Origin: Vampirovibrionaceae bacterium NZW_1234
GTDB taxonomy: Bacteria > Cyanobacteriota > Vampirovibrionia > Vampirovibrionales > JAGQHJ01
NCBI GenBank assembly: GCA_041697335.1
Contig: JBGUGD010000035.1
Location: forward strand, 64,001-128,000
Direction of reading: 5' to 3'
Length of the DNA stretch: 64,000 bases
A program made the position numbers and the translations under genes. The notes under the pieces were generated by a model. That model was not told where the DNA came from and ran no database searches. It was given only the letters and a program-made list of their open reading frames with translations. Position 1 is the stretch's first letter; every line of letters begins with the position of its first letter. Of this stretch, positions 233 to 21,362 are shown in pieces.

Positions 233-1297
233 TTACTCAATGACGAGGAAATCATCTTCATTGTTGTCTTGGGTTGTCATGGGATGACTGAACATACCTT
301 CTCGAATGAAACCTGTTTCAAGGTTCTCAACCTCGACAAAATAAGCTTCTTCCCAAATATCTTCTCGTTCAATTTCTCCAACTCTAACACTCAGCCGATG
401 GATCCCATATCGTGTAACCATATCGGGAGATTCAAGTTCCCACTTTATATAAGCCTCTATGTCTTTTATGGCAACATATTTCAAATTTTTTCTATTAAAT
501 TGTAATGATAAACGAGGGTTAGTACTCACATTGCCCGAATATATATCAAAAACATGAGTGCCAAATATTGGCGCCTGTGGAACAAGTGCTTCCACAACCT
601 TGATCCCGGGAATAATGCTTTTTTCATCAATCTTAAAGCCTTCACCAACTTGGCGTCCTTGCATTGGAATAATCTTAGTATCAAACCAAATAGTCCTAAT
701 TAAAGTATTAGCAGGCTTTGAGGACTTGTTTTTTAGGCAAGCTACCAGGTCAAACGTTAAATTATCGTACATCGGGTCTTCTGTTTCACAAAACTCAAGC
801 CACAAATCGGGCCCTGCCTGACGGTTCATCACATCCCGTATCTCAAATTCTTCCATAGGAACAGATTCAAAGTTAAATCGCTTATAAAACTTTTTATCTG
901 AGGCTTGGTGCGGAGCATTGGTACTTTGAGGTATTTCCACAACGTATGCGAACTTTCCCGGAGAGGTTGAGGTGAGTTCAACAGGATGAATGACAATCCC
1001 ACTGATTCTCCTCTGAATACGAGAATTGATTACTTGCTCCAACCATTCCTTGGATATCTCGGATGGGTTGAATCCTTCATCTAACTTTTCAGGCAGGTGT
1101 TTAGTCTCTCCGGTGCCTTCAACCATACCGTAGATGATTGTGCCACCAGCAGAGTTAGCGAAGGCTGAAACGTCTTTACTTAGCTCGTTCTTCTTTCCGT
1201 CAGTAGTTGCCAAGCTATTACAGGCTTTGTAGTCTAAGGTTAAACTCTCTTCAACCTTGTTATCTATAAGGGAGATTAAGCGTTCTTCTGTCCACAT
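233..1297 (-). CDS. Schlafen/AlbA_2 domain protein with an unknown C-terminal domain
   Basis: N-terminal motifs EESLTLDYK, KDVSAFANSAGGTIIYG and PHQA...FYKR are typical of AlbA_2. Confidence 0.85.
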   Translation of the reverse strand: MWTEERLISLIDNKVEESLTLDYKACNSLATTDGKKNELSKDVSAFANSAGGTIIYGMVEGTGETKHLPEKLDEGFNPSEISKEWLEQVINSRIQRRISGIVIHPVELTSTSPGKFAYVVEIPQSTNAPHQASDKKFYKRFNFESVPMEEFEIRDVMNRQAGPDLWLEFCETEDPMYDNLTFDLVACLKNKSSKPANTLIRTIWFDTKIIPMQGRQVGEGFKIDEKSIIPGIKVVEALVPQAPIFGTHVFDIYSGNVSTNPRLSLQFNRKNLKYVAIKDIEAYIKWELESPDMVTRYGIHRLSVRVGEIEREDIWEEAYFVEVENLETGFIREGMFSHPMTTQDNNEDDFLVIE

Positions 1298-1372
1298 ATC
1301 TAATTCCTGCTTATGTTCCTAGCTAAGCTACTTTGTAAACAATGGGATTAATAGATCGGACTTGATGTGGGC

Positions 1373-2047
1373 TTAGAATTGAATGTAATTGGTTTCATCT
1401 ACAAATATCTGGTAAGCTTCAATATCTTTTTTCCGCTCTGGAGTTAGCCATCCTCTTTTATCCCAAAATTCTCTGATTCGTCTTGGTGATGGTGGTGACA
1501 TAATTCCACCAACCCTCAAGGCTTCCCATTCTTTCATAGCCTCTTTAGCTTCAGGAGTAGGGTTTGGTCCTCCGAATTCAGAAGGTACTTTACTACCACC
1601 AAGGGCTTTGTAAGCCATATCAAATGCAACATAAGGGTACCAATATTCATTAAGCATAGATTTGATTTCATCAGAACTGATGCCCATTGAGTGACACACT
1701 CTTATTAACCGGTCTTTCTTTGCAGATTTCTCTTCTGGACTTGCACCTGCGAAACGATTACCACCTTGTATAAGACCTAAGATAATTGGTATAAGGGTTG
1801 ACGCCATTTCCTTCTGAAGTTCTTTGATGTTTGACTCAGCAGTTATCGCTATTCTTCTTAACTTAACCCCTTGACTCCCCAGCGTAAGTGTTTCAAAAGT
1901 ATGTAGGTTAGCGAATAGTAATGAAGCGCCACAAAGACCCGCCATAATAGCCATTGGCTTCCATCGGTCCAGATAACCAAAATGAATGGCTATCAAAAAA
2001 CTAGCTATTGCAACAATAAAGTAGATGAGGTTCCTTTGTTTTTCCAT
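1373..2047 (-). CDS. Hypothetical membrane protein (two N-terminal TM helices)
   Basis: 224-aa ORF with a hydrophobic N-terminus; directly abuts the upstream ORF. Confidence 0.7.
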   Translation of the reverse strand: MEKQRNLIYFIVAIASFLIAIHFGYLDRWKPMAIMAGLCGASLLFANLHTFETLTLGSQGVKLRRIAITAESNIKELQKEMASTLIPIILGLIQGGNRFAGASPEEKSAKKDRLIRVCHSMGISSDEIKSMLNEYWYPYVAFDMAYKALGGSKVPSEFGGPNPTPEAKEAMKEWEALRVGGIMSPPSPRRIREFWDKRGWLTPERKKDIEAYQIFVDETNYIQF

Positions 2048-2335
2048 CTATTTACTCACTCTCTGCCGATATTCCTTAACCATCTCCGGCGTAACGTCCT
2101 CGGGATAACACAAAGGAGCATACCCACCAGCACGATTGTAAGCGCTTCTTCTACCGCAAGCGTGACCTCTTCTGTCTGTATTATAAGGACAAGGACAATT
2201 CCCTGGATACTCAGCGATTGATTCCTGAATGAGCTTCTGTTTAATGGCGGCGTCTGAAAATTGTTTTGCTTCCGTGACAGGAACAGCAGCGAATGTCACC
2301 ATAACTAAGGCCACAATTGCTAACTTGTGATTCAT
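2048..2335 (-). CDS. Small secreted Cys-rich conserved hypothetical protein
   Basis: Signal peptide followed by CPCPY...CGRRSAYNRAGGYAPLCYPEDV. Confidence 0.75.
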   Translation of the reverse strand: MNHKLAIVALVMVTFAAVPVTEAKQFSDAAIKQKLIQESIAEYPGNCPCPYNTDRRGHACGRRSAYNRAGGYAPLCYPEDVTPEMVKEYRQRVSK

Positions 2336-2479
2336 CTTCCGTCCATCTTAGTGTTCAACTCAGCCGACATGATACCACCAAAGTCGCTTGTTGCTTCAAA
2401 AGGCAATTTCAAAAGCTGCCATGTTTTTATTTAAACAGCGAAGAAATTGACTTGGATGATGGAGAGAGGAGAGGCAATT

Positions 2480-2779
2480 ATGAGTAATTTTTACAGCATT
2501 GGTACTATGGCGTCACCGTCAGCGACATCTTCACCTATAACAATAGGTTCAGGCCGAGAAATAGCCTCATTTAACGGTACTGTTGAAGATATTATGTTTG
2601 AATACCTTCATAAGCTTTGTGGCGACAAAGAACTAAATGTTGAGAATCTAATTAAGCAGAACGGCAACAGCATTAACACAAGTGCCTTACAGGTGCCGAG
2701 TTATTTCAGCATTAGCGCGCTAGCGGCAAGCAGCGGAAACAGCGGCATCCCCATGAATCAACTAGACAACTTGGTCTAA
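2480..2779 (+). CDS. Hypothetical protein
   Basis: ORF with GGAGAGG-like SD before ATG 2480; no recognisable motif. Confidence 0.45.
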   Translation: MSNFYSIGTMASPSATSSPITIGSGREIASFNGTVEDIMFEYLHKLCGDKELNVENLIKQNGNSINTSALQVPSYFSISALAASSGNSGIPMNQLDNLV

Positions 2780-2815
2780 TAGAATTTATTTTCGAGTTTT
2801 GCTTTAATAGGTTTC

Positions 2816-3067
2816 ATGAATCTGAACCCGCAAAAATACAGAATAGCCTTGTCTGAAGACCTAGGCGTTCCTTCTGCTGCCATTGATTATTGGGAATATC
2901 AGGAGGAGACGGAAGCTAAGAAGGTCTTCAGGCGTATGGATGTGCCTTCAGGATATCAGCTTACCTTATGGAAGCTTGAACCAATGGAACAGATGGTCAT
3001 GGGTTTCGTACATCCTCCCTATTGGCGTAAGATCGACACAAGAATCGGTTTCTCGGAGTTCCCATGA
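2816..3067 (+). CDS. Hypothetical protein
   Basis: 83-aa ORF with an ATGA overlap into the nuclease gene. Confidence 0.55.
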   Translation: MNLNPQKYRIALSEDLGVPSAAIDYWEYQEETEAKKVFRRMDVPSGYQLTLWKLEPMEQMVMGFVHPPYWRKIDTRIGFSEFP

Positions 3068-3549
3068 AGTTTATCCTGTCGATTGTTCTAACAGCCCTTC
3101 TCACTGGTTCAGCCTTCGCTGATAAAGTCTGCAAGGTTTCGGATGGCGATACCTTCAATTTATGCCCTAAGAAACGGGTAAGATTGGCTTGCATTGACGC
3201 GCCAGAAGTCAGGCACAACAAGAAACAATCAGGACAACCAATGGGTTTCGAGTCCAGAGAGTTCCTAAAGGAAACTACAATGGGCAAGGACGTAAAGGTT
3301 CGCTGCGTTGCTCAATCCTACGATCGCCGTGTATGTTTTGCAGAGGTCAATGGCCGTGATTTAAGCGAAATGATGGTACTGGAAGGATTGGCCTTTGTGT
3401 CCCCTACAAAATGGGCCTACTGTAAAGGCGAATACGGTTTGAAGCTTACCAAATATCAGGAATACGCTAAAGCCAAGAAAGTAGGCATTTGGCGGCTTCC
3501 TAATGGGGGTGTTAGGCCGTGGGAGTATAGACACACTAACAGCCACTAA
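3064..3549 (+). CDS. Secreted thermonuclease (SNase family)
   Basis: Signal peptide; motifs VSDGDT, VRLACIDAPE, YDR, AKAKKVGIW and PWEYR. Confidence 0.9.
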   Translation: MKFILSIVLTALLTGSAFADKVCKVSDGDTFNLCPKKRVRLACIDAPEVRHNKKQSGQPMGFESREFLKETTMGKDVKVRCVAQSYDRRVCFAEVNGRDLSEMMVLEGLAFVSPTKWAYCKGEYGLKLTKYQEYAKAKKVGIWRLPNGGVRPWEYRHTNSH

Positions 3550-4358
3550 GTACTAACAGCTTCATCCAGCTTATACATGAGTAAACTGGCTAAAAATAAA
3601 TAGTGCATGGCTCTTTCAGGACTGATTAGAAGATTGTCATGGGCGTTCGGATTACGGATCCCTCTCATCACCCCGGCAAAGATTTGCGTATAGCCTTCTT
3701 GGACGTTCTTGCCAGACTCGGTTCCTAAATCATCTAGGACAATCACAGGGTTCTTAATGCTGAAGGCATTAAACATAAGATCCGAGCCATCCCTCTCTTC
3801 GCCCCTGCACTTTAGAAAACTCTCTTTAACTCGCTTGTTAACCTCTTTTAGAGCCGATTCTACCGCATCAGCATAATGACCATCCTCAAATTTAATCTGA
3901 GAGGTTAACTGAATCCGCTTGTGTATTAAAGCCCACATTGGCTCAAAGGCGTTCTTAGAGCTATTGGAGGCTAGGTTGTCGCTGTCTGAAAAATCTATCT
4001 TTGCTTCCTCCAGATTTTCAATTAAGCCCTGAAGGAAGGTGATAGCGTTAGGTAAGTCACCTTCAAAGTCTCGCTGGTATTCGGCATCTGAGCCACCAGC
4101 ATAACTAATATAGGTTATGCGGTAATGCTGGTTACGCAGATATTCAGGGGAGGTAGGACCAAAAATTTCAAGAATGTCTCTGTTAATTCGCTGCTCCACA
4201 TTGTCCACTTGTTGGTCATTGTGCCAAACGTGATCTATTTGTAATTGTTTGACTTCCTCTAGACGTCGTTGTAGCTTTGCGATGCCTCTGTCGATTTCAG
4301 CAAGCGAGTCGAATTTCTTAATTTCTGGCTGTGGTGGTGTGGATTTCTTGGTCGCCAT
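3546..4358 (-). CDS. TIGR02391 (Hypoth_Ymh) domain protein
   Basis: C-terminal F..GHYADAVESA...DG..LM..AF...G...GIRNP.AH pattern. Start moved to ATG 4358, which has an SD. Confidence 0.85.
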   Translation of the reverse strand: MATKKSTPPQPEIKKFDSLAEIDRGIAKLQRRLEEVKQLQIDHVWHNDQQVDNVEQRINRDILEIFGPTSPEYLRNQHYRITYISYAGGSDAEYQRDFEGDLPNAITFLQGLIENLEEAKIDFSDSDNLASNSSKNAFEPMWALIHKRIQLTSQIKFEDGHYADAVESALKEVNKRVKESFLKCRGEERDGSDLMFNAFSIKNPVIVLDDLGTESGKNVQEGYTQIFAGVMRGIRNPNAHDNLLISPERAMHYLFLASLLMYKLDEAVST

Positions 4359-4530
4359 CCTGTGATCCCTCTTCCCTAACGTAACTATACAGAAGAGTAT
4401 AGGATAAACGGGGATAAACATGTCTGTCTTAAGGAAAATTTAAGGCGGTTGTTGGTCACCAATTCACTGTCATACAACTGCCATCGCTGTCGTGTAAGTT
4501 GGATACTGTAGAAAATGTGAGGGCAACACA

Positions 4531-4761
4531 ATGGCCAACGGTATGGATAGACATACGATCACCCGTCGTCAGTTTGAGGAAGACAAGCAAGAGCTTATTA
4601 GAAGGGCTAACGCAACCATGTTTGACAGTGAACCGGTCATTATACCGGGAACTGAAGTGAGGATCGAAAGCCGACTGGTTAAACAGGACGAAGAGCTTGA
4701 TAAGACACTTATTTTAGCTCTGCAAGCCTTCCATAAGAAGCCTGTTGAAATCGTGGATTAA
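4531..4761 (+). CDS. Hypothetical protein
   Basis: 76-aa ORF with GAGG SD, convergent with the integrase. Confidence 0.55.
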   Translation: MANGMDRHTITRRQFEEDKQELIRRANATMFDSEPVIIPGTEVRIESRLVKQDEELDKTLILALQAFHKKPVEIVD

Positions 4762-6023
4762 TCCCAACCCTTCATCATCTCTACAACCTCGTCTTCCGTC
4801 GTCCGGCAGTACTTCATCGTTGTCTTGATGTCCGAATGACCTGCTGCAATTTGAAGCATATTCAATGGCTTACCCTTATTGGCGTTGTGGGTGATGAATG
4901 CCCTTCGAAGTACGTGAGGAGTAACTTCAACACCCGCACGTTTACCGAGCTTTCCCAATACTGACCTTAAGCCGTGTCTGTCAGTCTTCTCCCCATATCT
5001 GCTTAAGAAGACGTTTTCACGAAGCCCGTGTTCTTGAATACAGAAGTCTCTATACTGTCTAAGAGCCTTTGCGACTTTCTCACCAAAACCCACTTTCCGT
5101 CGTTTACCACCCTTCCCACAACGAACAACAAGATAACCTTCTTCTAGATTCACATCGTCCCATTGTAGGTTACAGAATTCGCTTGCCCTCAACCCGGTTG
5201 CTGCTAAGAACAGAACTGTTGTGTACTGTCGAATGGTTTGACAATGAGCCAATAAAGCATCTAATTCAACTTCATTAATTGATGTGCGTTTAGGCGGTTT
5301 ATGACGTTTGGGTTGGAGCGGTTTTATCTCGTTGAGGAAGTACGGATTTAAGGCCTTTTCGTTGATCAGGTACTTAGCGAAACATACAACCGCCTTGTAC
5401 AGTTTATCTCGCTTGCCATATTGTTCAACAGGTATGGACAACAACTCTTTCTTAAGGCTGGTAAGGCTTAGCTCCTTGTGCTTTTTAAGGAACTTATCAA
5501 TATAAAAGCTGTAATACTTGACTGTAAATGGACTAAATGGTTTACCACCAATTAACCCGTGTTCCATTGATCGTCTCCATGGCTCAACAGACCTTATCAA
5601 CTCGCCATAGGAGGCACAAGAAGAAATTTTGGCAGAGTCATTTTCTCCCTGATGGCCCATTAACTTGTTGAAGCGTTCAAACAGCTTCCCGGCTAAATCA
5701 TCTAGCTGGTCGTTTGTGTCCCCTCTACGCTTCTTTTTAGTGCTTAAATGACGCTCAAGCGATTCAACGTCAATTAAATACCTGGTTTTAGTTCCATACG
5801 GTTCAGTAAACGCTTGTACCTTACCTTGTTCGCACCACAAAGTTAGCGTACTTGGAGCAATATTGTAGGTTTTAGAGACTTTTTGAAGCGGTAGGTAACT
5901 TTCCGATCTGGGAAGTTCCTGTGAAGTTGTTAAAAGGTCTGAAGAATGGTGGGCGGTACAAGATTCGAACTTGTGACCCCTTCCGTGTGAAGGAAGTGCT
6001 CTACCACTGAGCCAACCGCCCAT
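4758..6023 (-). CDS. Tyrosine recombinase/integrase with an N-terminal excisionase-like HTH; true start uncertain because the frame runs through the tRNA
   Basis: Catalytic motifs TGLRASE, GKGGK, HVLRR and AGHSDIKTTMKY. N-terminal YLPLQKVSKTYNIAPSTLTLWCEQG resembles HTH_17. Confidence 0.9.
   Translation of the reverse strand: MGGWLSGRALPSHGRGHKFESCTAHHSSDLLTTSQELPRSESYLPLQKVSKTYNIAPSTLTLWCEQGKVQAFTEPYGTKTRYLIDVESLERHLSTKKKRRGDTNDQLDDLAGKLFERFNKLMGHQGENDSAKISSCASYGELIRSVEPWRRSMEHGLIGGKPFSPFTVKYYSFYIDKFLKKHKELSLTSLKKELLSIPVEQYGKRDKLYKAVVCFAKYLINEKALNPYFLNEIKPLQPKRHKPPKRTSINEVELDALLAHCQTIRQYTTVLFLAATGLRASEFCNLQWDDVNLEEGYLVVRCGKGGKRRKVGFGEKVAKALRQYRDFCIQEHGLRENVFLSRYGEKTDRHGLRSVLGKLGKRAGVEVTPHVLRRAFITHNANKGKPLNMLQIAAGHSDIKTTMKYCRTTEDEVVEMMKGWD
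5947..6021 (-). tRNA. tRNA-Val (anticodon CAC)
   Basis: Reverse complement GGGCGGTTGGCTCAGTGGTAGAGCACTTCCTTCACACGGAAGGGGTCACAAGTTCGAATCTTGTACCGCCCACCA folds as a cloverleaf with a TTCGAA T-loop and encoded CCA. Confidence 0.97.
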
Positions 6024-8413: not shown

Positions 8414-10105
8414 ATGACCGCACAAACCGAATCGCTGTCCTCACTGGTAAATTCGGCTCGCAATACAGCCGGTCTGATGCTTCTTGCCGACTACGGTTTA
8501 ATACGAGTGTCCGGGGCCGATGCTGCCGAATTCCTTCACAGTCAATCAACCAGTGATGTTTTGCGCCTAGCAGAGGGTGAGTCTCAAGCCTCGGCCTTGG
8601 TCGATCGTAAAGGCCATCTCCAGGCCAGCCTGACTCTGTATCGTGCCGAGGCGAGTTATTGGATCCTAGCAGAGCAATCCCAGCTTCCCGCTATTCTAGA
8701 GCGCCTTGAGGCCTATCATTTTACCGAAGATGTCCGCTTCGACAGCCAAACTGAGATTTATGACCTGATTGCACTTCAAGGCCCTCAAACCCCTCTGATT
8801 GCCCGAGAGTTAAGCCTTCCCACGGACCCTGCGATAGCTCCCTTTGAATCGGGCTGGGTTTTGAAAAAGTCTCTCACGGGCGATGACGGTCTGATTCTCG
8901 CGCTTAAGAAACCCCATGCAGGCGATTGGTTGGCGCGCCTGACGACCGTTGTTGAGACCCATGGCGGTGTTATGTTAACTCCCGAGGCCTTGGAAACACT
9001 TCGCATTGAAGCAGGGCTCCCACGCTATGGCTTGGATATGAGCATCGAGAACTTACTGCCCGAAACAGGGCTACAACAAACGGCCGTGAGCTACGATAAA
9101 GGCTGTTACACAGGTCAGGAAGTCATTGCGCGCGTGCGAACCTATGGCTCCGTGCAACGCGCCTTGATGGGACTGATCTTTCCTCCAGAAGTCTCGCTTC
9201 CACCCCTCCATAGCGAAATTCTTCTCAACAACCAGCCGATTGGGATCATCAAGAGCAGTACCCTCTCCCCCACATTGGATGCCCCCATTGCACTGGCATA
9301 CCTTTCTCGAGACCACCGGGTTCCCAATAAGATTCTGGAGGTCACCATGGCCGGGCAGCTCTACACCGTCAAAGTGGTCTTTCTTCCTTTCTATACACCA
9401 CTACAAGCAACCGAACGGGGAAAAGCCAAATATGAAGAAGGGTTGCAACGCTTTGGAGAGAACCAGGAAGCCGAGGCCATTGCCCTGTTACGAGAAGCCA
9501 TTGATCTGGATCCCCATCTGGCTGACGCCTATGAAGCGCTTGGTGTCATTTTGTCCCGACACGAGCAGTATGACGAAGCCATTACACTGATGCAGCGCCT
9601 TGCAGAAATTGATCCGGAAGCCATCATGCCTCACACCAACCTGTCCGTGTTCTATATGAAGAAAGGTATGAAAGACGAAGCCGAAATTGAAAAGGCCTTG
9701 GCAACCACCCTGGAATTCAAGAAGGCCCTTGCACAAAAGCAGCAGGAAAAGGCCACTCAACAAGCCAAACAACAGCAACGAGAAGCGCTGGAATCCAAAA
9801 TCGGCATGTTTCAGGAAGTTTTAGAACTTGATCCGGAAGATGCCCTTGCCAATTACAGCCTAGGCAATACCTACCTCCAGTTGGGCCGGAGCGCCGAAGC
9901 CATTGCGCATCTGGAGAGAGCCCTGATGAGTGATCCCAAATACACCGTTGCCTATTTGGCTTTAGGCAAAAGTCTAGAAGCCCAAGGCCAGCTTGATGCC
10001 TCCAAAAGCACTTATGAAAAAGGCATTGAAGTCGCCGCTAAACGAGGTGACTTGATGCCCCTCCAAGAAATGCAGCGACGCCTTCAAGCCATTTCAAATC
10101 AGTAA
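8414..10105 (+). CDS. ygfZ: YgfZ/Iba57 folate-binding Fe-S maturation protein fused to C-terminal TPRs
   Basis: GcvT-like N-terminus, the KGCYTGQE signature, and two TPR blocks. Confidence 0.88.
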   Translation: MTAQTESLSSLVNSARNTAGLMLLADYGLIRVSGADAAEFLHSQSTSDVLRLAEGESQASALVDRKGHLQASLTLYRAEASYWILAEQSQLPAILERLEAYHFTEDVRFDSQTEIYDLIALQGPQTPLIARELSLPTDPAIAPFESGWVLKKSLTGDDGLILALKKPHAGDWLARLTTVVETHGGVMLTPEALETLRIEAGLPRYGLDMSIENLLPETGLQQTAVSYDKGCYTGQEVIARVRTYGSVQRALMGLIFPPEVSLPPLHSEILLNNQPIGIIKSSTLSPTLDAPIALAYLSRDHRVPNKILEVTMAGQLYTVKVVFLPFYTPLQATERGKAKYEEGLQRFGENQEAEAIALLREAIDLDPHLADAYEALGVILSRHEQYDEAITLMQRLAEIDPEAIMPHTNLSVFYMKKGMKDEAEIEKALATTLEFKKALAQKQQEKATQQAKQQQREALESKIGMFQEVLELDPEDALANYSLGNTYLQLGRSAEAIAHLERALMSDPKYTVAYLALGKSLEAQGQLDASKSTYEKGIEVAAKRGDLMPLQEMQRRLQAISNQ

Positions 10106-10342
10106 AGACTTCAATTCTTCTAGAGTGGAAAAATAGTACTGGCGTAATACACTGCCATTATGTGGGCTAGAGGGGCCATTCCCCGGCTATCTTTCTTTAC
10201 TTCTTTTACAAGGCTGTTTTCCTGGCAATGCCTAACCTTGGGACCTATATCCGAAGCTAATTTTACAGCAAAACCACAGAACTTATTGATTTCTCCGAGA
10301 GGTTGGCCACCACTGAGAACTTCAACCGGTGTCTTTGGTTAT

Positions 10343-10393
10343 CTTAAATATGTATTAACCCCGTCATAAAATTCCCACATATTGTTTTTATAT
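10343..10393 (+). promoter_or_regulatory. Conserved 51-bp promoter element, copy 2 (upstream of the toxin gene)
   Basis: CTTAAATATG-TATTAACCC-CGT-CATAAAATTC-N7-TTGTTTTTATAT, followed by TATAGT at 10395-10400. Confidence 0.65.
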
Positions 10394-10489
10394 ATATAGT
10401 TGTGTGTGATTCAGTGAGACTTGCCTGCGCCGTGGCACAGGACCGTCTAAACAACCATCCCGCTTTTGTAGTGGGAAGGAGGATTGGCT

Positions 10490-13400
10490 ATGTCTGGTAT
10501 TACTGAGAAATCAACCTTTATCTCAAAGGCTAAAAGCGTGCCGCTAGAGTCTTTAAATGTTTTGGACATCAAACCTTCAGACACTGTCAATCTGATGGAC
10601 TTGCTCAAGAAAAGCAAACCGGATTATTCCAAATATTTTGCAACCGATTTAGGCACTAAAATGCCTGGCACCACAACAAAGCCTCCTGCAAAATCCGAGT
10701 TTTCAGGTAGCTCCTTGAAGGATAGTACTGCTTCCACCGACGGATTACCTAAAATGCTGTCCTTAAAAAAACCGGCACCCAAACCCTTCACACCAAGCAG
10801 TGATCCAGGGGGCACGAATGAACCGGTCATGGTGGATGGAAAACCCATGATCTTGATAAGGAGACCTTGGGTCCAGCCCAAAATGACGGAAGGAAAGGGG
10901 GGAAAACGGCTTGATAAAGATGAAAACATCCCATTCTTACTCGTTCCTCAAGAGATGCCACCTGAGGAGGTTGTAGAATCCTATATTTTACCGGACCTGT
11001 ATCAACGCATCGAAGCCATTCAGGAACGCCGCCGCAACAGTCCATTCGCCAGTACACGGTATAACCTGGCTGAACGTCGTGATTTATTTCGACTGCAGCA
11101 TAGCTATTATATGCTACGAGCCTTTGCACAAAACCCTGAATTCCGAGCCCAGCTTGGCAACAACATAGAAAACCTTTACGAATTCATTCAGGAAGACATG
11201 GACCTACTGAATGATATGAGAAAGCATGAGCCAGAGTATTTTGATATGCGCCCCCAATTGGTACCGGCGATGTTTAAAGGCTACAAGGCGGGCGCATCGG
11301 GAGATTTTATCAAGGATTTGACCCGTGAACTATCCGAATTAAACGGCATTGATGTGAGCTGGGATATTCGAGAAGAACGATTAGTCCCACCGGCAAAAGA
11401 TTTTCGTGGCAGAAATATCGCTTTAGCCATACCAAAACTTGAGGCTCACACAAAAGCGCATGGAAGTATGGAAGGGCTTGTCTTTTCTGAAGCGGACTTC
11501 AGTGAGGTCGATCTATCGACGTTAAATGTGCGTGGGGCTGATTTTTCAAAAGCCTGGGGAGTCGTCTTTAGGGGAACTATTGATGCGGAAAGCCTCTCCG
11601 GCGTGAATTTACGATATAGCCCAGGGTACACCCCACTGGGTTGGAAGCCCGGCGAGAAATACGTGGGTCCTCCAATAGGTGCTCAGTTCAGAGATGCCAA
11701 AATCGTCGGTGATCTCCGTCGCATGACACTTACCGGGGCCCATTTGCACGATGTTAATCTGGATGAGGCCAACCTACAAGGGGCCGACTTTACCGGCTCA
11801 CGTGGTGTTCGCTTCAAAGGCACGTTAGATCCTAAGCGGTTTGAAGGCAGTACGCTTACCGATACCCACTTTGATGAGGCTGTTATTGACGGTGACTTTA
11901 CCCCAGGAACCCGGCTCAACGGAGTTTTCTGGAGCAAAACCAACCTGACCAAAACCAACATGCAAGGCCGGAATCTTGAAGGCAGTGTTTTTGAAGGGAG
12001 CAATGCCAGCGGTGTCAGCTTTGAAAATGCCTGGCTCGATGAAGTCGTCACTGATAGTGCCAATTTCTCAGGTGCCCGCTTCCAGGGTGCCAGCTTCCAA
12101 AAAGCGGTAATGGCCAATACAAATCTCTCCGGCGCCGTCTTCAATGAACGAACCAATTTCCAGGATGCTCAATTTGTACACTGCAACCTGACCAATATTC
12201 AGGCCAAGGGCGTCACCATGCGTGGCGTCATTCTCCATGGCTCGGTCCTCCATGGAGCCCATATGGAGGGCGCCTCGTTGGAAGAGGCGAATTTGTCCAA
12301 TGTACAGCTAGATGGCAGGACCAATTTGCATAAGGCAAATTTGACAGGCGCTATGCTACACGGGCTTCGCGTCACGGATAGCGCCGACAACCGAACCAAT
12401 CTGGCAAAGGCCACCTTAACAGGAGCCAGTCTGCTGGATGCACAACTAGGCCATGCCGATTTATCCGACGCCAACTTGGAAGGCGCCAATTTGCAGGGAG
12501 CAAACCTGAGTCAGGCCGTGCTAACCGGCGCCAAGCTGGATGGCGCCGTCTACGATGACCGAACCCAATTCCCCGGCATCAATAACACCGACCCGGCTGC
12601 TCGGGCTGAATTTGCAAGACGACATAACATGGTTCACATTAACCAACTGGAAATGATGCATCAAGCTGAATCCACCTCGGCCATCAGTGGCCTAATGACC
12701 GAGATGTACAATCGAGTCCGGGATCAGTTTGATACAGTACGTTATTCCAAAGCTATGGAAAAAACGGGCAGAACGTACACTGTCGAACATCGGACACCCC
12801 ATGCCATGTCCATCCAGGTTGACAACATCAGCAAAGAAGTTGAGCAATTGTCCAGAATTTCCCAAGAGGGCTACACTCCAGACTCTCGAACTCGGTTTAA
12901 TACGCAGTTCCATAAGCTATACGGATTCAACCCGGGGGAGCCGTCGGAAGGGTTTCGAAATCTCGTAGGGCATCTCAATAATCTACCCATTAATAGCCAA
13001 GGCGAAATCCGTCAGGAAGATCTCCTTGCCGTGTTCGATAACGATGATGCAATTAACGCTTTCCCAGAAGGCAGCGTGATGCGAGAAACCCTCTCAACCA
13101 TCCGTCAAGCTTTACAGGAAGGACGAGACAGCGCCTCCCGCCGATCCATGATTGCAGGCTTAGCCGCTTTTGTGGCGGTAGGAATAGTTGCTGTTGCAAC
13201 AGGAGGAACAGGTATAGCCCTGGCGGGACCGGTTGTATCGGCTTTAGCCTCTACTGCCAGCCGCGCAGTCAATGGCCGAGGAGACGGCACAGAATTCAGT
13301 GGCAGTGAATTATTGCGCTCTTTTGCTGTTGAAACCGTTGCGGGTTACGTGACTCTTCCTCTGGGTGCAGCAGGACGCTCTATTGGGTCTTTGGCCAGCC

Positions 13401-15217
13401 GTGGCGGTGGCTATGTTCTGGGACGCGTGGGAGGCCGAACCATCGCCACCTTTGCCGCCAACCCAACTGCACAGATGGCTGGACGTTTTCTGGCATCCAC
13501 TGCTGGACACGCCTATAATGGCAGCGCCTTTGCCTTCACCCACACTACGCTAGACGGGCTTAGCCGTGGCGAAAGCCTAAGCAGTTCTCTATCCCGAGGT
13601 CTGCATTCGATGCCAGAAGGCGCCGTTGCCGGTATTTTGATTGGTACCCCCATGCAGGCAGGTCATCGAGGTCTCAGCCGATTGCTAAGACGCGGTAGCG
13701 AACCCACTCCGGAACTTTCGCCTGCAGGCGAAAAGCCTACGGCGAAATTGGCTACCGAGACCACCCCGATAATGGAGCGGTTCACCCTCCCAAAACGCTC
13801 ATCCGCCAAATACATGGAGAAATTCACGGGCAAAGACCTGACAGAACGTCTAGGCGTTAAAGAAAAAATGACGCCAAAAGCCGCCGAAAAGATGATGGAT
13901 CCCAGTCCCGAGAATCCGGTAGTCACGGAGAAAACCCTCTTTAAAAGCAAAGCCAAAGGCACAGTGCCTACCGAGCGTCCAATAGAACTTCACCGCAGCA
14001 GAACAGGATCGGATTCAACAATAACGATTGAACTGCGGGATGCTCGAGGCAATACCCGCCCGGAAGTTATTAACTCGGTTGCTGAAGCCATTGGCGTCTC
14101 TCCTGAGAATATTAACATCCGTGTGGTCCGCCCACATGAGGCTCCTCATACCACGATAAATGCACGTGGCCAAGTGGAAGTTGTTCTCCCAAGAGAAGGC
14201 GTTGGTCGGGTTCGTCTAGTGGAATTGGCCCATGAGATGCATCACGCTCAGCTTGTCAGACAAGCCCAGATTGGGGGGCCTGGCTCTCCTGCAGCCAGAC
14301 GACTCGAGTCTTATCAGCAGGTTGATAACGCCTACCAAAGAACCTGGGAGAGGGCGCAGCATGAGCGCAACACCACTGGTCGCATTTCGGAAGCCACGCA
14401 ACGCGACCTGGATGCTGCTCGATTTGCGTATGAAAACCATCCTGTCGAATTGTCCGCTCGCGCTGCGGAATATCAAGCCCTGGCCAGTGTGGGCCGCCAA
14501 GGCCAACCGGCACTAAACCATGCCGATCGGCTCGTTGCCAAAGCCAATGCCATGGAACAGGTAATGGCAGCAGATACGCCACAAGCCTTTGAAGCCGCAC
14601 TTCGGCAAGCTCGTGATGCAGGCTATAGCGGACCGGAAATCACCCGAATCCGCAGTTTGCGTCCTGATTTAACCTCGACACCTACCGGGGGCCCGCGTAT
14701 TCCACAAAACGCAACAGGTCCGGAAGTTGCTACCCAGTTAAGAGGCACCCTTGTGGAGCCCAGAACCTACGGTGGTGAAAGACTGACAAATACGTTTGTT
14801 GTTCGGGAAGGCAATAATTATCATATTATTCAGCCTGGGACGAATCCGTGTACCGGGCAACCGCATCCCGTCCATACCATTAACGCTTCATTAGTCACAG
14901 CCTCAACGCCGCTTCAAAGCCATGTCAATGCCTATTTAGGTCGTATTCGCCCTACATCCGCCCAGGCTCGAACGTATCTTGAAAGGAGAGGCTATACTCT
15001 TGAAGCAACCGGTGAAACCAGTCATGGTCAACCGATTTACAGAGTGCTACAAAATGGCCGTAACACAGGACGGCGCATTAGCTTTGATGTCGGAAGCGGT
15101 AACAATGCCGGATCCCATGAAGGCGCCATCTGGAAAGATGTTACCCGAGGCACCAGAAGCGACCAACGAGTACCAGTTGATCACAACTTAGATCCGATTG
15201 AAGGCTATTCACTATAA
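10490..15217 (+). CDS. Large polymorphic toxin/effector: pentapeptide repeats, hydrophobic Gly/Ala region, HExxH metallopeptidase-like domain, C-terminal Ntox21-like RNase
   Basis: AxLxx repeats (~11470-12560); hydrophobic segment (~13150-13250); ELAHEMHH...HPVELSAR; C-terminus SHGQPIY...ISFDVG...SHEGAIWK...DHNL; AGGAGG SD. Confidence 0.8.
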   Translation: MSGITEKSTFISKAKSVPLESLNVLDIKPSDTVNLMDLLKKSKPDYSKYFATDLGTKMPGTTTKPPAKSEFSGSSLKDSTASTDGLPKMLSLKKPAPKPFTPSSDPGGTNEPVMVDGKPMILIRRPWVQPKMTEGKGGKRLDKDENIPFLLVPQEMPPEEVVESYILPDLYQRIEAIQERRRNSPFASTRYNLAERRDLFRLQHSYYMLRAFAQNPEFRAQLGNNIENLYEFIQEDMDLLNDMRKHEPEYFDMRPQLVPAMFKGYKAGASGDFIKDLTRELSELNGIDVSWDIREERLVPPAKDFRGRNIALAIPKLEAHTKAHGSMEGLVFSEADFSEVDLSTLNVRGADFSKAWGVVFRGTIDAESLSGVNLRYSPGYTPLGWKPGEKYVGPPIGAQFRDAKIVGDLRRMTLTGAHLHDVNLDEANLQGADFTGSRGVRFKGTLDPKRFEGSTLTDTHFDEAVIDGDFTPGTRLNGVFWSKTNLTKTNMQGRNLEGSVFEGSNASGVSFENAWLDEVVTDSANFSGARFQGASFQKAVMANTNLSGAVFNERTNFQDAQFVHCNLTNIQAKGVTMRGVILHGSVLHGAHMEGASLEEANLSNVQLDGRTNLHKANLTGAMLHGLRVTDSADNRTNLAKATLTGASLLDAQLGHADLSDANLEGANLQGANLSQAVLTGAKLDGAVYDDRTQFPGINNTDPAARAEFARRHNMVHINQLEMMHQAESTSAISGLMTEMYNRVRDQFDTVRYSKAMEKTGRTYTVEHRTPHAMSIQVDNISKEVEQLSRISQEGYTPDSRTRFNTQFHKLYGFNPGEPSEGFRNLVGHLNNLPINSQGEIRQEDLLAVFDNDDAINAFPEGSVMRETLSTIRQALQEGRDSASRRSMIAGLAAFVAVGIVAVATGGTGIALAGPVVSALASTASRAVNGRGDGTEFSGSELLRSFAVETVAGYVTLPLGAAGRSIGSLASRGGGYVLGRVGGRTIATFAANPTAQMAGRFLASTAGHAYNGSAFAFTHTTLDGLSRGESLSSSLSRGLHSMPEGAVAGILIGTPMQAGHRGLSRLLRRGSEPTPELSPAGEKPTAKLATETTPIMERFTLPKRSSAKYMEKFTGKDLTERLGVKEKMTPKAAEKMMDPSPENPVVTEKTLFKSKAKGTVPTERPIELHRSRTGSDSTITIELRDARGNTRPEVINSVAEAIGVSPENINIRVVRPHEAPHTTINARGQVEVVLPREGVGRVRLVELAHEMHHAQLVRQAQIGGPGSPAARRLESYQQVDNAYQRTWERAQHERNTTGRISEATQRDLDAARFAYENHPVELSARAAEYQALASVGRQGQPALNHADRLVAKANAMEQVMAADTPQAFEAALRQARDAGYSGPEITRIRSLRPDLTSTPTGGPRIPQNATGPEVATQLRGTLVEPRTYGGERLTNTFVVREGNNYHIIQPGTNPCTGQPHPVHTINASLVTASTPLQSHVNAYLGRIRPTSAQARTYLERRGYTLEATGETSHGQPIYRVLQNGRNTGRRISFDVGSGNNAGSHEGAIWKDVTRGTRSDQRVPVDHNLDPIEGYSL

Positions 15218-15242
15218 GCCCTGAGAAAACCGAGTGCGAGGC

Positions 15243-15563
15243 TTACTCTTCGTCCTCGTCTTCGTCGAGTTCCATTTGCTCGACGTAAGCCAAGACGCGT
15301 TCAAACTCGTCTTCGTCTTCGATGGCTTCAAAGACTTGCTCGCCATCTTCTTCGATAATGCGCATGACAACGACTTCTTCGTCGTAGCCTTCTTCCACAT
15401 CAGCGTCGTCTTGTTCGCCCAAGTACAACAAGAGCCCGTACATCTGGCCTTCCACTTCAATCATATCGATCATCTGAAAGCGATGCTCTACACCCTCCTC
15501 GTCGGTGGTAAAAATAACCGGGGCTTCGTCAAAGCCGCTGTTGCCATTCTGGGACGCAGACAT
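15243..15563 (-). CDS. DUF1292 domain acidic protein
   Basis: I.TTDEEG.E..F...IEVEGQ.Y.LL and IEDEDEFERV; AGGAG SD. Confidence 0.85.
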   Translation of the reverse strand: MSASQNGNSGFDEAPVIFTTDEEGVEHRFQMIDMIEVEGQMYGLLLYLGEQDDADVEEGYDEEVVVMRIIEEDGEQVFEAIEDEDEFERVLAYVEQMELDEDEDEE

Positions 15564-15741: not shown

Positions 15742-16767
15742 GTGATCGATATCGAAGCCGTTAATCCCGTCAACGTGGGGGCTATGCAACCCCTCTATAC
15801 CAGCTTTCGCAAAATTGCCGAAAGCGATTACGGCTGGCCTCTCAGTGCTATCGACTTTAACGGATTACGACAGATCCTTTTATCGGGCCTGATGAGTGCC
15901 TATTTGATTAAGGATTTTCATCAACAACGCTATATTGGTTTTATGCTCTATCAGGTGGAGCCTTACCGTGCCCTGGAAATAAAAGTCATTTACCTGGACC
16001 AGGACGAGAATGTCAAAGCCATTTTGGACACGCTCTTTCCCAAGTTCCTGGACGATTGCAAGGCCTATAGTGATCACTGGGATGTCATCAGCTACCCGGT
16101 TTTGGGAATCGGCCAAAGCCGCTATGTGCGTTATTTGACTTGGTATGGTCTTAAGCCGGTAGGCCAATCCGTCGTGAACTTTAATATTTTTGATGGCATC
16201 TCCGTCGAGATTTTCAAGAAACAACACTACACCGCACCACCGGAAGGCTATCGCTTTATCTCCTGGGATGATCAATATACGGAAGGGGTCATCGACGTTC
16301 TTAGCGAAGCGTTTGCGACGTCGGTTGATGCATTGTGGGATCCCCGGTTTCGCTCTCGCGACGGGATTCGTCAGGCCCTGGAATTTGTAAAAACTGGGGG
16401 CTACGGAACGTTTTGGCCCTCGTGTAATACCATTCTGTTAAACGACCAAAACCAGGCCGTGGGCGTCTGTTTGCTTAATGTGGTAAGCAAGGATGAAGCC
16501 AATATTCCGCTGATTGGGCTGTTGAAAAGTGAGCGCCGACACAAGCTGGGACGCACCCTCCTTGCCCAGACCGTGGAAAAATGCATCAACGAAGTCTTGG
16601 CAGGCAAGCTCAAAATTCAGAAAATTTCCGCTACCGTGGCAACCGAAAACATTCCGGCTGTTCGCATGTATCGACACACCGGGTTTCAGGAACACCACTG
16701 GTATACTCATATGTATGAAGATCGCAGTGATGTGCTCAATCGCAAGAAAGCAGGTCAATGGTGCTAA
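15742..16767 (+). CDS. GNAT family N-acetyltransferase (probably tandem GNAT)
   Basis: ERRHKLGRTLL acetyl-CoA motif and ENIPAVRMYRHTGF. Start may be 15784. Confidence 0.8.
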   Translation: MIDIEAVNPVNVGAMQPLYTSFRKIAESDYGWPLSAIDFNGLRQILLSGLMSAYLIKDFHQQRYIGFMLYQVEPYRALEIKVIYLDQDENVKAILDTLFPKFLDDCKAYSDHWDVISYPVLGIGQSRYVRYLTWYGLKPVGQSVVNFNIFDGISVEIFKKQHYTAPPEGYRFISWDDQYTEGVIDVLSEAFATSVDALWDPRFRSRDGIRQALEFVKTGGYGTFWPSCNTILLNDQNQAVGVCLLNVVSKDEANIPLIGLLKSERRHKLGRTLLAQTVEKCINEVLAGKLKIQKISATVATENIPAVRMYRHTGFQEHHWYTHMYEDRSDVLNRKKAGQWC

Positions 16768-17999
16768 GCTCTCCCCCATCGGTTAATTTCCAGGATGTCA
16801 CGACCCGGGTTCGCATTAATCCGGATACCTACCTGAAATTTGAAGACGGCGATCAAGTGACGCTACAACATATGTACAGCGACCAAAGTGTTCGCATTAA
16901 ATATGACATCATGCTCATTCTCTACCCCATGGTCCAGTGGGTCACGGTTGGGGAATTGTGTGAAGGCTGGCCCCCGGAAGATCAGGTCAAAATCAAAGAT
17001 CACCTGCAGATGCTCCACCAAAGCAAGATTATTCTGACCGAGCAGGACGAGTTGCCCGAACAGAGCCAAAGCAACTTGCCCACCAACCTCGGCAAGGAAA
17101 TCACCATTAACATCGAAAACCACCATGTTATGCTGCGCGACAGCATTCGCATGGCCTGTTACCAACGCGCCATTGAAAAAGCCGTCAACGCCAATAGCAT
17201 TGTGGTGGATTTAGGGGCAGGCTCCGGCATCTTATCCTTCTTTTCCGCTCGAGCCGGTGCCCAAAAAATCTATGCCATCGAAAAGCGCCCGGATATGGTG
17301 ATGGTGGCCAAGGAACTGGCCAAAGCCAATGGGTTTGAGCATCAAATTACGTTTATTGAAAACAGCTCCCATCTGGTCAAGGCCGAAGAACTGGACCCCA
17401 AGCCCACGGTCCTGGTTTCTGAAATCCTTGGAAACGCGATTCTCGAAGAGCACATCCTGGAATTTACCATGGATGCCCGGGATCGTTTTCTGGCTCCTGG
17501 GGGCAAACTGATCCCGGCCGCCGTCGATATCCTGGTCGTTCCCTTTGACAGTGGCCCGCCGTTGGATCGGACCCTGGAAGTAGATGAGCTGTCCATGATT
17601 TACGGCTTTAATTTTGACATTATGAAAACGGTTCTGGCCCAAAAACCCACCATGAAGCTGGAGCGCTTTAACCCAATGGCCTACCCCATTGTTGCCGATC
17701 CGGTATGCGCCATTTCCTTAGACCTCTACAGCATTCAGTCGCCGAAATTTCAAAGTTCCTTCTCGTTTACAGCCAAGGAAGACGGCTTTGTCAACGGGTT
17801 TTGTGCCTTCTTCAGAGCCAAAATGGACGACGACAATGTGCTGACCAACTCACCCTGGGCGCCCCCGACACACTGGACCCAGATGGTTTTTCACTTCCCC
17901 GACCGACGCCCCGTCAAAGCCAACGAGAGTTATGAGATGGAAATGCGCTATGATGGTGGCCTGAGCCTATGGTTCAAAGCCGACTACAACAACGACTAA
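16758..17999 (+). CDS. SAM-dependent methyltransferase of the protein-arginine methyltransferase (PRMT) type
   Basis: H.VMLRD..R..CY, VVDLGAGSGILS, double-E loop SEILGNAILEE and THW loop (PPTHWTQ). Confidence 0.85.
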   Translation: MVLSSPPSVNFQDVTTRVRINPDTYLKFEDGDQVTLQHMYSDQSVRIKYDIMLILYPMVQWVTVGELCEGWPPEDQVKIKDHLQMLHQSKIILTEQDELPEQSQSNLPTNLGKEITINIENHHVMLRDSIRMACYQRAIEKAVNANSIVVDLGAGSGILSFFSARAGAQKIYAIEKRPDMVMVAKELAKANGFEHQITFIENSSHLVKAEELDPKPTVLVSEILGNAILEEHILEFTMDARDRFLAPGGKLIPAAVDILVVPFDSGPPLDRTLEVDELSMIYGFNFDIMKTVLAQKPTMKLERFNPMAYPIVADPVCAISLDLYSIQSPKFQSSFSFTAKEDGFVNGFCAFFRAKMDDDNVLTNSPWAPPTHWTQMVFHFPDRRPVKANESYEMEMRYDGGLSLWFKADYNND

Positions 18000-20465: not shown

Positions 20466-20942
20466 TCAGGACGCCATCATCACTGAAGACACACCGGTCA
20501 CAGCCTGAATGGGACTTTTTGGGGCTTCCAGGTGTGCCTCGCGTTCGTTACGCGGGAAACCGGCGCCACGGATGGTAAAATGCACGTCCGCATCTTTGAC
20601 TTCGAACGCCTCCAGCACATACCGTTGGGTCGCCTCCACATCAAACGGCTTGCAGCTGAAGAGATCGAAGAAAAAGTAGTCCTTTTGCGTAAACGAGTGA
20701 AAGGACAAATGGGACTCGGCAATCACCACCACCCCGGTAATCCCTTCATCTTCCGGTACCAGGCCGGAATAGGGGAAGACATAGGGCTGAATAATTTTGG
20801 TCATCCCGACTTTTTCCGGCAAGGTGTTCAGAAAATCGAAGATATAGCGTAAATCCGATATTTTCCCAGGGTGACACTGACGACAATCCAGCATCAAATG
20901 GGGCCCCATGGCGTTGGCCAAAGCAGTCGAATGTCTCATCAT
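20466..20942 (-). CDS. Pyruvoyl-dependent decarboxylase proenzyme, divergent SpeD family paralogue
   Basis: GPHLMLD, GITGVVVIAESHLSFH and DLFSCKPFD. Confidence 0.85.
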   Translation of the reverse strand: MMRHSTALANAMGPHLMLDCRQCHPGKISDLRYIFDFLNTLPEKVGMTKIIQPYVFPYSGLVPEDEGITGVVVIAESHLSFHSFTQKDYFFFDLFSCKPFDVEATQRYVLEAFEVKDADVHFTIRGAGFPRNEREAHLEAPKSPIQAVTGVSSVMMAS

Positions 20943-20945
20943 GGG

Positions 20946-21362
20946 TCAGCCCTCCTTTCCGGCAGGAATTGCCGTTTTTACTGCAGGTGGCGACAAGCGG
21001 TCCAGAATGCGATTGAGATCGCCGCGTTCGACATGCTGGATATCAGCCGCTTCAGCGCTAAATCCATCCTTTAAGACCCGATACGCGACCATTTGCTGAA
21101 TAGTATCCCCACAGGTATATAAATCAATGGACGCATAGCGGTATTCCGGCCAGGTATGAATGGCCAGATGGGATTCGGCAATCACCACCACGCCGCTGAT
21201 ACCGTGCGGCTGGAACCGATGAAACGTTGACTGGACAATAGTAGCCCCGCAATCCCGGGCAGCCTGGTTCATGATCTCTTCCACATAAGGCAAATCGTCC
21301 AGGGCCTTGGGATCACAATTATAAAATTCAAGCAACATGTGCTGACCAAGCGTTTGTTTCAT
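20946..21362 (-). CDS. speD: S-adenosylmethionine decarboxylase proenzyme
   Basis: LGQHMLLEFYNC, GISGVVVIAESHLAIHTWPE and DLYTCG. Confidence 0.93.
   Translation of the reverse strand: MKQTLGQHMLLEFYNCDPKALDDLPYVEEIMNQAARDCGATIVQSTFHRFQPHGISGVVVIAESHLAIHTWPEYRYASIDLYTCGDTIQQMVAYRVLKDGFSAEAADIQHVERGDLNRILDRLSPPAVKTAIPAGKEG

Follow-up and report, generated by a model that had tools for sequence, protein, structure and literature searches.

A zincin-bearing polymorphic-toxin-type protein with a putative Ntox21/colicin E3-like tip in a genome of the Vampirovibrionales

The toxin domain closest to the one treated here is Ntox21, as found in the C-terminal region of CdiA from Enterobacter cloacae (CdiA-CT, here CdiA-ECL; structure 4NTQ), for which the review PMC9086364 gives D203, D205, H207 and K214 as active site (numbering via the 4ntq alignment) and a cut between A1493 and G1494 of 16S ribosomal RNA (rRNA). 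For the PVC toxins, Zhang 2012 (PMC3482391) describes, in the part concerned with them, a constant zincin ahead of variable tips, with proposed autoprocessing and often without adjacent immunity. Damage of the colicin E3 type to 16S rRNA is reversed in vitro and in vivo by PrfH and RtcB2 according to PMC9304027. Here, a stretch of 64,000 nucleotides (the window, from contig JBGUGD010000035.1) was analyzed, with a focus on a gene encoding a large protein with a zincin and an Ntox21-like tip. Like CdiA-CT, this protein ends in a small domain of helix and beta-meander with SHGQP, D, H and WK in the same order; unlike it, it has inserted loops, has lost D205, and lacks both a CdiA, Rhs, LXG or MafB stalk and a co-directional immunity gene. 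With the PVC-metallopeptidase/DUF4157 (eCIS_core) toxins it shares a zincin N-terminal to variable tips and the missing adjacent immunity, whereas its zincin is buried far inside the sequence, C-terminal to a hydrophobic hairpin, reads HExxHAQL (with Q one place earlier than in HExxHxxQ), and places a long helical hairpin between HExxH and the third ligand; nor was a contractile sheath gene found (PF04984, the only sheath family searched, had no match in the 94.75% complete assembly).

We consider it probable that the gene encodes an exported polymorphic-toxin-type protein with a C-terminal Ntox21/colicin E3-like RNase toxin. An earlier interpretation of the letters and reading frames (the sequence-only reading) had proposed an undescribed polymorphic-toxin architecture; the toxin layout and the exchangeable C-termini bear this out, whereas a zincin before a toxin without immunity is already known in principle from the PVC toxins. 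The open reading frame (ORF) it named is real, yet its length of 1577 aa was counted from a TTG at 10484, which was rejected as start because it is too close to the Shine-Dalgarno sequence, and the length from the ATG is 1575 aa (Table 1). The modules it had listed ahead of the tip were all recovered: an N-terminus rich in K, P and S that is of low complexity and lacks a signal peptide (best 11-mer hydropathy of the first 45 aa 1.04, thus no hydrophobic core), about 360 aa of pentapeptide repeats, a hydrophobic Gly/Ala-rich region (in fact a hairpin followed by a Gly/Ala stretch), and an HExxH zincin with a downstream Glu. Hydrophobic 19-mers are confined to aa 882-927, and all long homologues show a hydrophobic peak ahead of the zincin, consistent with the hairpin being a putative membrane-crossing element. 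The pentapeptide repeat itself is common, occurring in cyanobacterial HetL-type proteins, Qnr/MfpA and PipB2/SopA, and all NCBIfam matches of the region are to the repeat and below equivalog cut-offs; unlike in those proteins, it is one module here, of one paralogue only (it is missing from all four others), and its nearest relatives are stand-alone pentapeptide proteins of the same genome and order.

The assignment of the tip depends on several concordant comparisons. Its motifs are SHGQ at 1511, D1533, H1543, W1548-K1549 and DHNL at 1564, and in a joint alignment with Ntox21 members the window tip follows them column by column through a helix, G[YF], SHGQP, NG, I[ST]xD, H, G, WK, R and D-x-L, so that D203, H207 and K214 of CdiA-ECL correspond to D1533, H1543 and K1549. 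Ntox21 (PF15526) is the best Pfam family for aa 1480-1575 (E=0.006). Eight independent Ntox21 members were collected for comparisons by hidden Markov model (HMM) and hhalign: with the HMM, the toxin ORF took first rank among 14,647 ORFs (E=0.094); aligned to these members by hhalign, the five tips gave 81% (E=1.2e-5). The wide fold search with the tip model matched colicin E3 (4v5k_AY; Z 3.8, root-mean-square deviation (rmsd) 4.0, 76 residues aligned) and CdiA-ECL (4ntq_A; Z 3.0, rmsd 3.6, 69/76 aligned), the latter having the top Foldseek probability (0.51) among the matches listed for the tip. Moreover, five tips (four from this genome and one outside fragment) all keep S, D, G, H, G, K and R at identities to the window tip of only 20-29%, which argues for selection on catalysis.

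Against this assignment stands, in the first place, that every single test for Ntox21 remained below threshold: the tip scored 17.3 bits against a Pfam gathering cut-off of 25, a genome-wide search with the family gave no match, Atlas placed Ntox21 at rank 16 (0.89), and hhalign of the paralogue tips with the window sequence left out fell to 3%. The equivalent of D205, the second Asp of DxDxH, is missing, and an insertion of six residues precedes the His. For aa 1400-1575 the model is of moderate quality, with a mean predicted local distance difference test (pLDDT) of only 68.6 and values of 85-92 over aa 1490-1530, and unrelated folds (Ntr1/TFIP11-type chains, Z 5.7-6.1) outscored both colicin E3 and 4ntq. 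Measured by the reference motifs in the table of Zhang 2012 (PMC3482391), namely [DS]xDxxxH, RxG[ST] and RxxD, the window tip does not match the first (SxD is present, but 9 residues ahead of the His) and has lost G[ST], with R and the terminal D-x-L kept; R-x-x-G-T is kept in the sequences named here C34, C13 and P0006. The sequence-only reading, which had called the tip Ntox21-like, thus stands at the level of motifs and of several weak concordant tests and fails on formal thresholds; judged from its sequence, the tip may with fair probability act like Ntox21 without being a formal member. It is likely to be an active RNase, and a cut at A1493/G1494 of 16S rRNA is the slightly favoured prediction for its target. 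The 16S rRNA of the source organism itself has the canonical helix-44 sequence. Ahead of the tip, the four tip-bearing copies share a small beta-rich module, modelled with a pLDDT of mostly 40-70; its Mog1/PsbP-like matches (Z 3-4) were not trusted at so low a pLDDT.

In its model, built from nine sequences, the zincin module is of the gluzincin-type metallopeptidase fold, with three strands, the HExxH helix, a long helical hairpin and a helix bearing the third ligand. The ligands H1248 and H1252, with E1249, lie in HEMHH (aa 1248-1252) and the third, E1320, in HPVE, that is, HExxH and a distal Glu are present and peptidase activity is putative; an extra HExxH pattern at aa 1216 lies outside the conserved helix. 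The top match of the wide fold search was the VgrG2b effector (6h56; Z 6.7, rmsd 3.9, 124 aligned), and the top 16 include oligoendopeptidase F, lugdulysin, SPRTN and M32 peptidases with plain helical bundles interleaved; gluzincins lead, with all Z below 8. VgrG2b, the M30 peptidase lugdulysin, SPRTN/Wss1-like proteins and minigluzincins are thus alike in fold (Z 5.6-6.7, 12-14% identity), whereas the protein studied here, unlike VgrG2b, M30 and SPRTN, has its zincin in an internal position with a putative nuclease behind it. An identity with DUF4157/eCIS_core was ruled out, as no match to PF13699 exceeded the cut-off and HExxHxxQ is not kept. Foldseek returned no match at E<=0.001 for either the zincin or the tip model, a sequence search of the PDB with either gave nothing significant, and Atlas listed for the zincin unnamed clusters only, with low feature overlap. 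The HExxH motif is intact in 8 of 10 copies (the window protein, the first copy of C13, C37, C14, P0005, P0007, P0008 and P0010) and lost in the second copy of C13 and in the only copy of C34, where the second His is gone. Self-cleavage can therefore not be obligatory, and of the earlier suggestion that the peptidase releases the tip there stays a possibility for the window copy, for which we put autoprocessing at nearly an even chance; because some copies are inactive, a role as scaffold or sorting mark is offered as the alternative.

The zincin family is apparently undescribed, and within the genome a fixed tip cassette is found behind variable N-termini. Five genes carry the zincin, the toxin gene and the four paralogues C34, C13, C14 and C37, the last of which ends in a different C-terminus without this tip. 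Where the sequence-only reading had expected paralogues with the same N-terminus and swapped tips, the opposite was observed: the N-halves of C34, C13 and C14 are unrelated to one another and to that of the window protein, zincin and tip are shared, and a swapping of tips was seen between genomes only. A search of 1.84 billion representatives yielded 10 matches. Four belong to this organism or to near-identical strains and one is a fragment with a related tip; the other five are outside proteins in which a hydrophobic hairpin and the zincin are joined to differing C-termini, one of them an Armatimonadota FHA protein (FHA confirmed by Pfam). The same zincin with other C-termini is present in C37, P0005, P0007, P0008 and P0010; judged by eye from their motifs, the outside C-termini resemble small RNases of two types, a PD-(D/E)xK nuclease and a kinase. 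At the sole outside locus with DNA (L044), a co-directional ORF of 111 aa follows 4 bp after the toxin stop. Together, the outside homologues and this layout indicate that the zincin marks a polymorphic toxin family with the usual toxin-immunity layout elsewhere. Nearer relatives are scarce: none of 7999 candidates scored was a full-length relative of the toxin, the tip profile had no convincing match in the 48 other genomes of the order searched (one match in G030, E=0.005), and the zincin profile none in 250 other genomes of the class, where six weak matches (E 5e-5 to 9e-4) to the helical part of proteins of about 1180 aa were dropped as coiled-coil. Word-index searches, run with aa 1180-1575 and with the zincin profile, added no further relatives, and a contig scan with the outside homologues as queries found nothing.

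The absence of an adjacent immunity gene noted from the sequence was upheld. None of the four tip-bearing loci of this genome has a co-directional small gene in the immunity position, and no homologue of six immunity-position queries (five from Ntox21 loci, two of them partial, and one from L044) was found elsewhere (best E 0.72). Among plasmid Ntox21 loci, six were fetched and five read for neighbours, four of which have an annotated co-directional ORF. The convergent DUF1292 gene 25 nt downstream was ruled out as immunity gene, as it adjoins the ygfZ-like aminomethyltransferase-TPR (ygfZ-TPR) gene without a toxin in the relatives L045 and L046 and is thus an old neighbour. C34, C13 and C14 each adjoin a small convergent orphan ORF of 128-149 aa (gaps 27, -18 and 10 bp), two of which are clearly related (E=1e-13) and the third weakly; a small close convergent neighbour of this kind occurs at 6 of 76 genes of at least 900 aa, these three paralogues included, and the window toxin gene has none. 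One outside relative was seen, on the metagenome contig P0039; weak partial matches of the partner profile in 3/48 and 1/200 genomes were dropped. The genome also encodes PrfH (173.7 bits, cut-off 166.65) and RtcB2 (436.6 bits, cut-off 271.8). Both are over the curated cut-offs for the pair that repairs the colicin E3/CdiA-ECL cut; unlike the pair as described, a defence of the victim, they are unlinked, carry an N-terminal tag (see below) and reside in the putative producer. Each was found, like the tip cassette, in this genome alone of 49 of the order, many of which are fragmented metagenome-assembled genomes (MAGs). A second, untagged RtcB is encoded at C30:29726-30952. Protection of the producer in trans, by PrfH and RtcB2 repair and/or by partner proteins instead of an adjacent immunity gene, is a tentative proposal.

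With regard to export, no Pfam or NCBIfam family for a recognised trafficking domain (signal peptide, TPS, VgrG/PAAR, LXG, Rhs) was matched by the toxin. The conjugative type IV secretion system (T4SS) proposed for Vampirovibrio chlorellavorus in Soo 2015 (PMC4451040) is of the plasmid type, and its ATPase VirB4 was not found in this genome. Loci for a type II secretion system/type IV pilus and for Tad are present, but these need a Sec signal. The genome further encodes two type III export sets, the canonical flagellar one and a divergent second one comprising FlhA2, FliI2, FliH2, FliF2, FlgB/C/F/G2, FlhB2 and FliPQR2, with an orphan ORF of 385 aa at the fliG position, and only one flagellin cluster. 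FlhA2 is 37% identical to FlhA1 and below the FlhA cut-off; at least two FlhA-family matches in two score tiers were counted in 46 of 49 genomes of the order, some extras being split genes. From its sequence, the second set is a candidate protein-delivery machine of the Vampirovibrionales. About 9% of the long ORFs (around 200 proteins) begin with a stretch rich in S, T, P and R and poor in acidic residues that ends in [PV]RF[GS] (the RF[GS] tag), in composition presumably like organelle transit peptides. A matrix for the tag at score 12 matched 202 N-termini against 2 internal positions among 2269 ORFs, the matrix having been trained on N-termini, and with an untrained pattern the counts were 148 against 33 among 2107. 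A Sec-like core was present in 4 of 150 tagged and 367 of 2119 other proteins. Out of 20 tagged proteins scanned, 11 have Pfam families, which include RtcB2, M16 and M41 peptidases, a Clp-type ATPase, inositol monophosphatase, hydrolases and HEAT repeats, and nine are orphans. The tag is on all three partner ORFs and clear in two, which fits export better than cytoplasmic immunity, and it is clear on C37, PrfH and RtcB2. The tag may thus serve as export signal and the second set as its machine, and for the toxin a Sec-independent export, most probably through this set, is put forward with less than even confidence.

Several observations speak against this overall reading. The tag of the toxin itself is weak (score 6.2, equalled by 2.8% of internal windows) and that of C13 and C34 is absent, and a profile of the outside homologues had no match to the hydrophobic region of the toxin. 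That PrfH and RtcB2 co-occur with the toxins was observed in one genome only; as the pair is known to defend cells against incoming toxins, it may simply guard against neighbours, and because both proteins carry the tag they may be exported and not protect the producer.

If exported without Sec, the protein would bind or span to its target through the variable N-half, which here would include a pentapeptide helix recruited from a local stand-alone family; that this helix and the helical N-half form a variable stalk or receptor-binding part, with the hairpin for membrane entry, we judge a little better than an even proposition. Following this, the hydrophobic hairpin would cross the membrane, the zincin would free or chaperone the C-terminal cassette, and the tip would cleave the decoding site in the small-subunit rRNA of a neighbouring cell's 70S ribosomes, the producer being covered by precursor latency and PrfH-RtcB2 repair, possibly with partner proteins. 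Bacteria and cyanobacteria of the mat are more likely targets than algal plastids. A wider scenario, in which an order-wide second export machine delivers the roughly 200 tagged proteins to prey and this lineage added zincin-processed 16S RNases without immunity genes, together with PrfH and RtcB2 that bear the tag and reverse the cleavage in producer or prey, is quite unlikely as a whole; if true, it would mean a ribotoxin governed by repair of its target and not by an inhibitor protein, and a reversible switching of translation in prey or plastid.

The best surviving alternative, which follows the sequence-only reading and which we nonetheless regard as unlikely, is that of a eukaryote-directed effector that cuts plastid, mitochondrial or cytosolic ribosomes of an algal or protist host, needs no immunity as it is active only after release, and is possibly co-delivered with RF[GS]-tagged proteins, PrfH and RtcB2 included, to tune host translation. 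The host order agrees with it: ygfZ-TPR has its best full-length orthologues in an uncultured cyanobacterium (53%), in MAGs of the Vampirovibrionales (51% and 42%) and in Vampirovibrio sp. (45%), which places the source organism in the Vampirovibrionales, as the comparison with Vampirovibrio in the sequence-only reading had anticipated, and V. chlorellavorus preys on Chlorella as reported in PMC4451040. The loci and queries without any immunity gene, the many tagged proteins without Sec core (peptidases, the Clp-type ATPase, hydrolases and orphans among them) and the interpretation in Zhang 2012 (PMC3482391), in its part on PVC toxins, of those without immunity as aimed at distant organisms point the same way. 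However, the missing immunity gene says less for an algal target than had been argued, because PrfH and RtcB2 are present and three paralogues have candidate partners. Moreover, that the family was not found in the 48 other genomes of the order argues against a shared predation kit, the outside homologue at L044 has a classic immunity-position ORF, and the tag of the window protein is weak.

It is more doubtful still that the tip combines a colicin E3-like fold with an RNA substrate of another kind (tRNA, mRNA), or that it is some other small alpha+beta nuclease, PrfH and RtcB2 then being a coincidental defence. The weak fold scores, the missing second Asp, the inserted loop, the distance of the paralogue tips from Ntox21, the Atlas neighbours at 0.91 (several other Ntox and HNH-type clusters) and the varied substrates of BECR toxins despite their common fold described in PMC9086364 would agree with this, whereas the column-by-column agreement of the window copy with the Ntox21 motif order would not. 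A protein domesticated for a non-toxic role, at the surface or after secretion (an adhesin or a secreted metalloprotease), with a decayed toxin remnant as tip would account for the lack of an immunity gene, the degenerate zincin copies in C34 and C13, the inactive transglutaminase-like domain in C14 and the zincin without this tip in C37, but is very improbable given that D, H and K are invariant across such divergent tips, that the reading frames are intact and that the gene persists, little changed, in a second strain.

In titles and abstracts, neither this zincin family nor a fixed tip behind variable N-termini nor a pairing with tagged repair was found, although supplements such as Additional File 1 of Zhang 2012 may list the zincin family; nor was a report found there on polymorphic toxins of Vampirovibrio or Melainabacteria, secretion-system effectors of Vampirovibrio, Melainabacteria flagella and type III secretion, or flhA of the Vampirovibrionales. 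The results add a zincin-marked polymorphic toxin family and place such toxins in non-photosynthetic relatives of the cyanobacteria. They also offer a hypothesis, open to testing, of how a toxin that cuts ribosomes may be kept without linked immunity, namely target repair by PrfH-RtcB2, hitherto described as a defence of the victim only. In the Vampirovibrionales, for which a T4SS of the plasmid type had been proposed, a second flagellum-type set and an N-terminal tag point to another candidate delivery route. The mode of attack of these predators is relevant to algal pond crashes.

Table 1. Positions of the toxin gene, its modules and associated features; coordinates without prefix refer to the window.
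Feature	Position	Strand	Remarks
Toxin gene (P0001)	10490..15217	+	1575 aa, start ATG 10490
Shine-Dalgarno AAGGAGG	10476..10482	+	strong; 7 nt 5' of ATG 10490
aa 1-145, low-complexity, K/P/S/T-rich	10490..10924	+	no signal peptide
aa 146-325, probably helical domain	10925..11464	+	no Pfam family, no paralogue
aa 327-700 (about), pentapeptide-repeat beta-helix	11468..12589	+	Pfam PF00805, E=1e-47
aa 701-881, helical region	12590..13132	+	no family over cut-off
aa 882-1065, hydrophobic hairpin and Gly/Ala-rich stretch	13133..13684	+	
aa 1188-1357, gluzincin-fold module	14051..14560	+	model pLDDT 89.2; VgrG2b effector fold match
aa 1400-1473, small beta-rich pre-tip module (N-x-T...L-x-G)	14687..14908	+	common to four tip-bearing copies
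aa 1474-1575, Ntox21/colicin E3-like tip	14909..15214	+	
ygfZ-like aminomethyltransferase-TPR gene	8414..10105	+	ancestral upstream neighbour of toxin gene
DUF1292 gene	15243..15563	-	PF06949, E=2e-12; ancestral neighbour, convergent; stop codons 25 nt apart
Paralogue C34	C34:123272-126679		1135 aa; zincin, pre-tip and tip
Paralogue C13	C13:70277-78742		2821 aa; two zincin copies, pre-tip and tip
Paralogue C14	C14:81126-87239		2037 aa; zincin, pre-tip and tip, Cys-less transglutaminase-like domain
Paralogue C37	C37:106263-108110		615 aa; zincin, different C-terminus without this tip
Convergent orphan ORFs	L001:8707-9102; L002:5910-6296; L005:5668-6117		motifs R-F-x-G-x-F-x-x-I-P, W-A-x-I
PrfH	C9:949-1680		tagged N-terminal extension
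RtcB2	C21:5095-6294		tagged N-terminal extension
Second export set	C32:10110-20950; C29:178730-179812; C8:66046-68072		L147, L148

The toxin gene is a lineage-specific insertion of 5 kb, as seen from the adjacency of ygfZ-TPR and DUF1292 in relatives: in L045 and L046, ygfZ-TPR is followed by convergent DUF1292 and GNAT genes within about 120 bp. This holds for 2 of 2 relatives with both genes on one contig, the stretches of L047, L048 and L049 being without DUF1292. No relative of the same genus was among the 49 genomes of the order searched. DNA of the toxin gene at >=99% identity was found in contigs of three runs from one hot-spring sample, which may itself be the source of the window, and contigs of a diverged strain (one run of another study) bridge both ends of the gene to the same flanks. 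For a second strain (run X7; compared over window positions 9000-15450), pieces of ygfZ-TPR differ at 69/491 and 31/323 bases, whereas pieces inside the toxin gene differ at only 4/341, 8/428, 5/703 and 8/313; in these low-depth contigs, the difference may mean that the toxin gene was recently exchanged between strains or spread by a sweep. The YgfZ-TPR fusion is kept in the Vampirovibrionales and one Hydrogenedentes MAG, and the gene lies downstream of glutaredoxin and IscA-like genes.

Some further observations concern other genes. At L044:9530-15450, a GC-rich metagenome locus, the zincin toxin and the immunity-position ORF are followed by a peptidoglycan-binding protein of 600 aa with, by eye, a probable papain-like C-terminus. 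Cas9-like (C14:92281-95502) and Cas1-like (C14:91440-92333) ORFs, likewise identified by eye, lie about 4 kb from the C14 paralogue. In the window, positions 233-6023 form a low-GC island up to a tRNA gene (5950-6021, minus strand) with tyrosine integrase, Schlafen/AlbA_2, SNase and Hypoth_Ymh genes; in the relative L046, different defence-like genes occupy this tRNA site. A gene for a protein-arginine-methyltransferase-like protein (16758-17999; PRMT_C over the cut-off plus a SAM domain), a eukaryote-like enzyme in a bacterium, lies behind a tandem GNAT gene and is kept in L045 (72%). Lastly, positions 20466-21362 hold, by eye, two tandem S-adenosylmethionine decarboxylase-like genes, the first of which has many viral homologues (51-60%).

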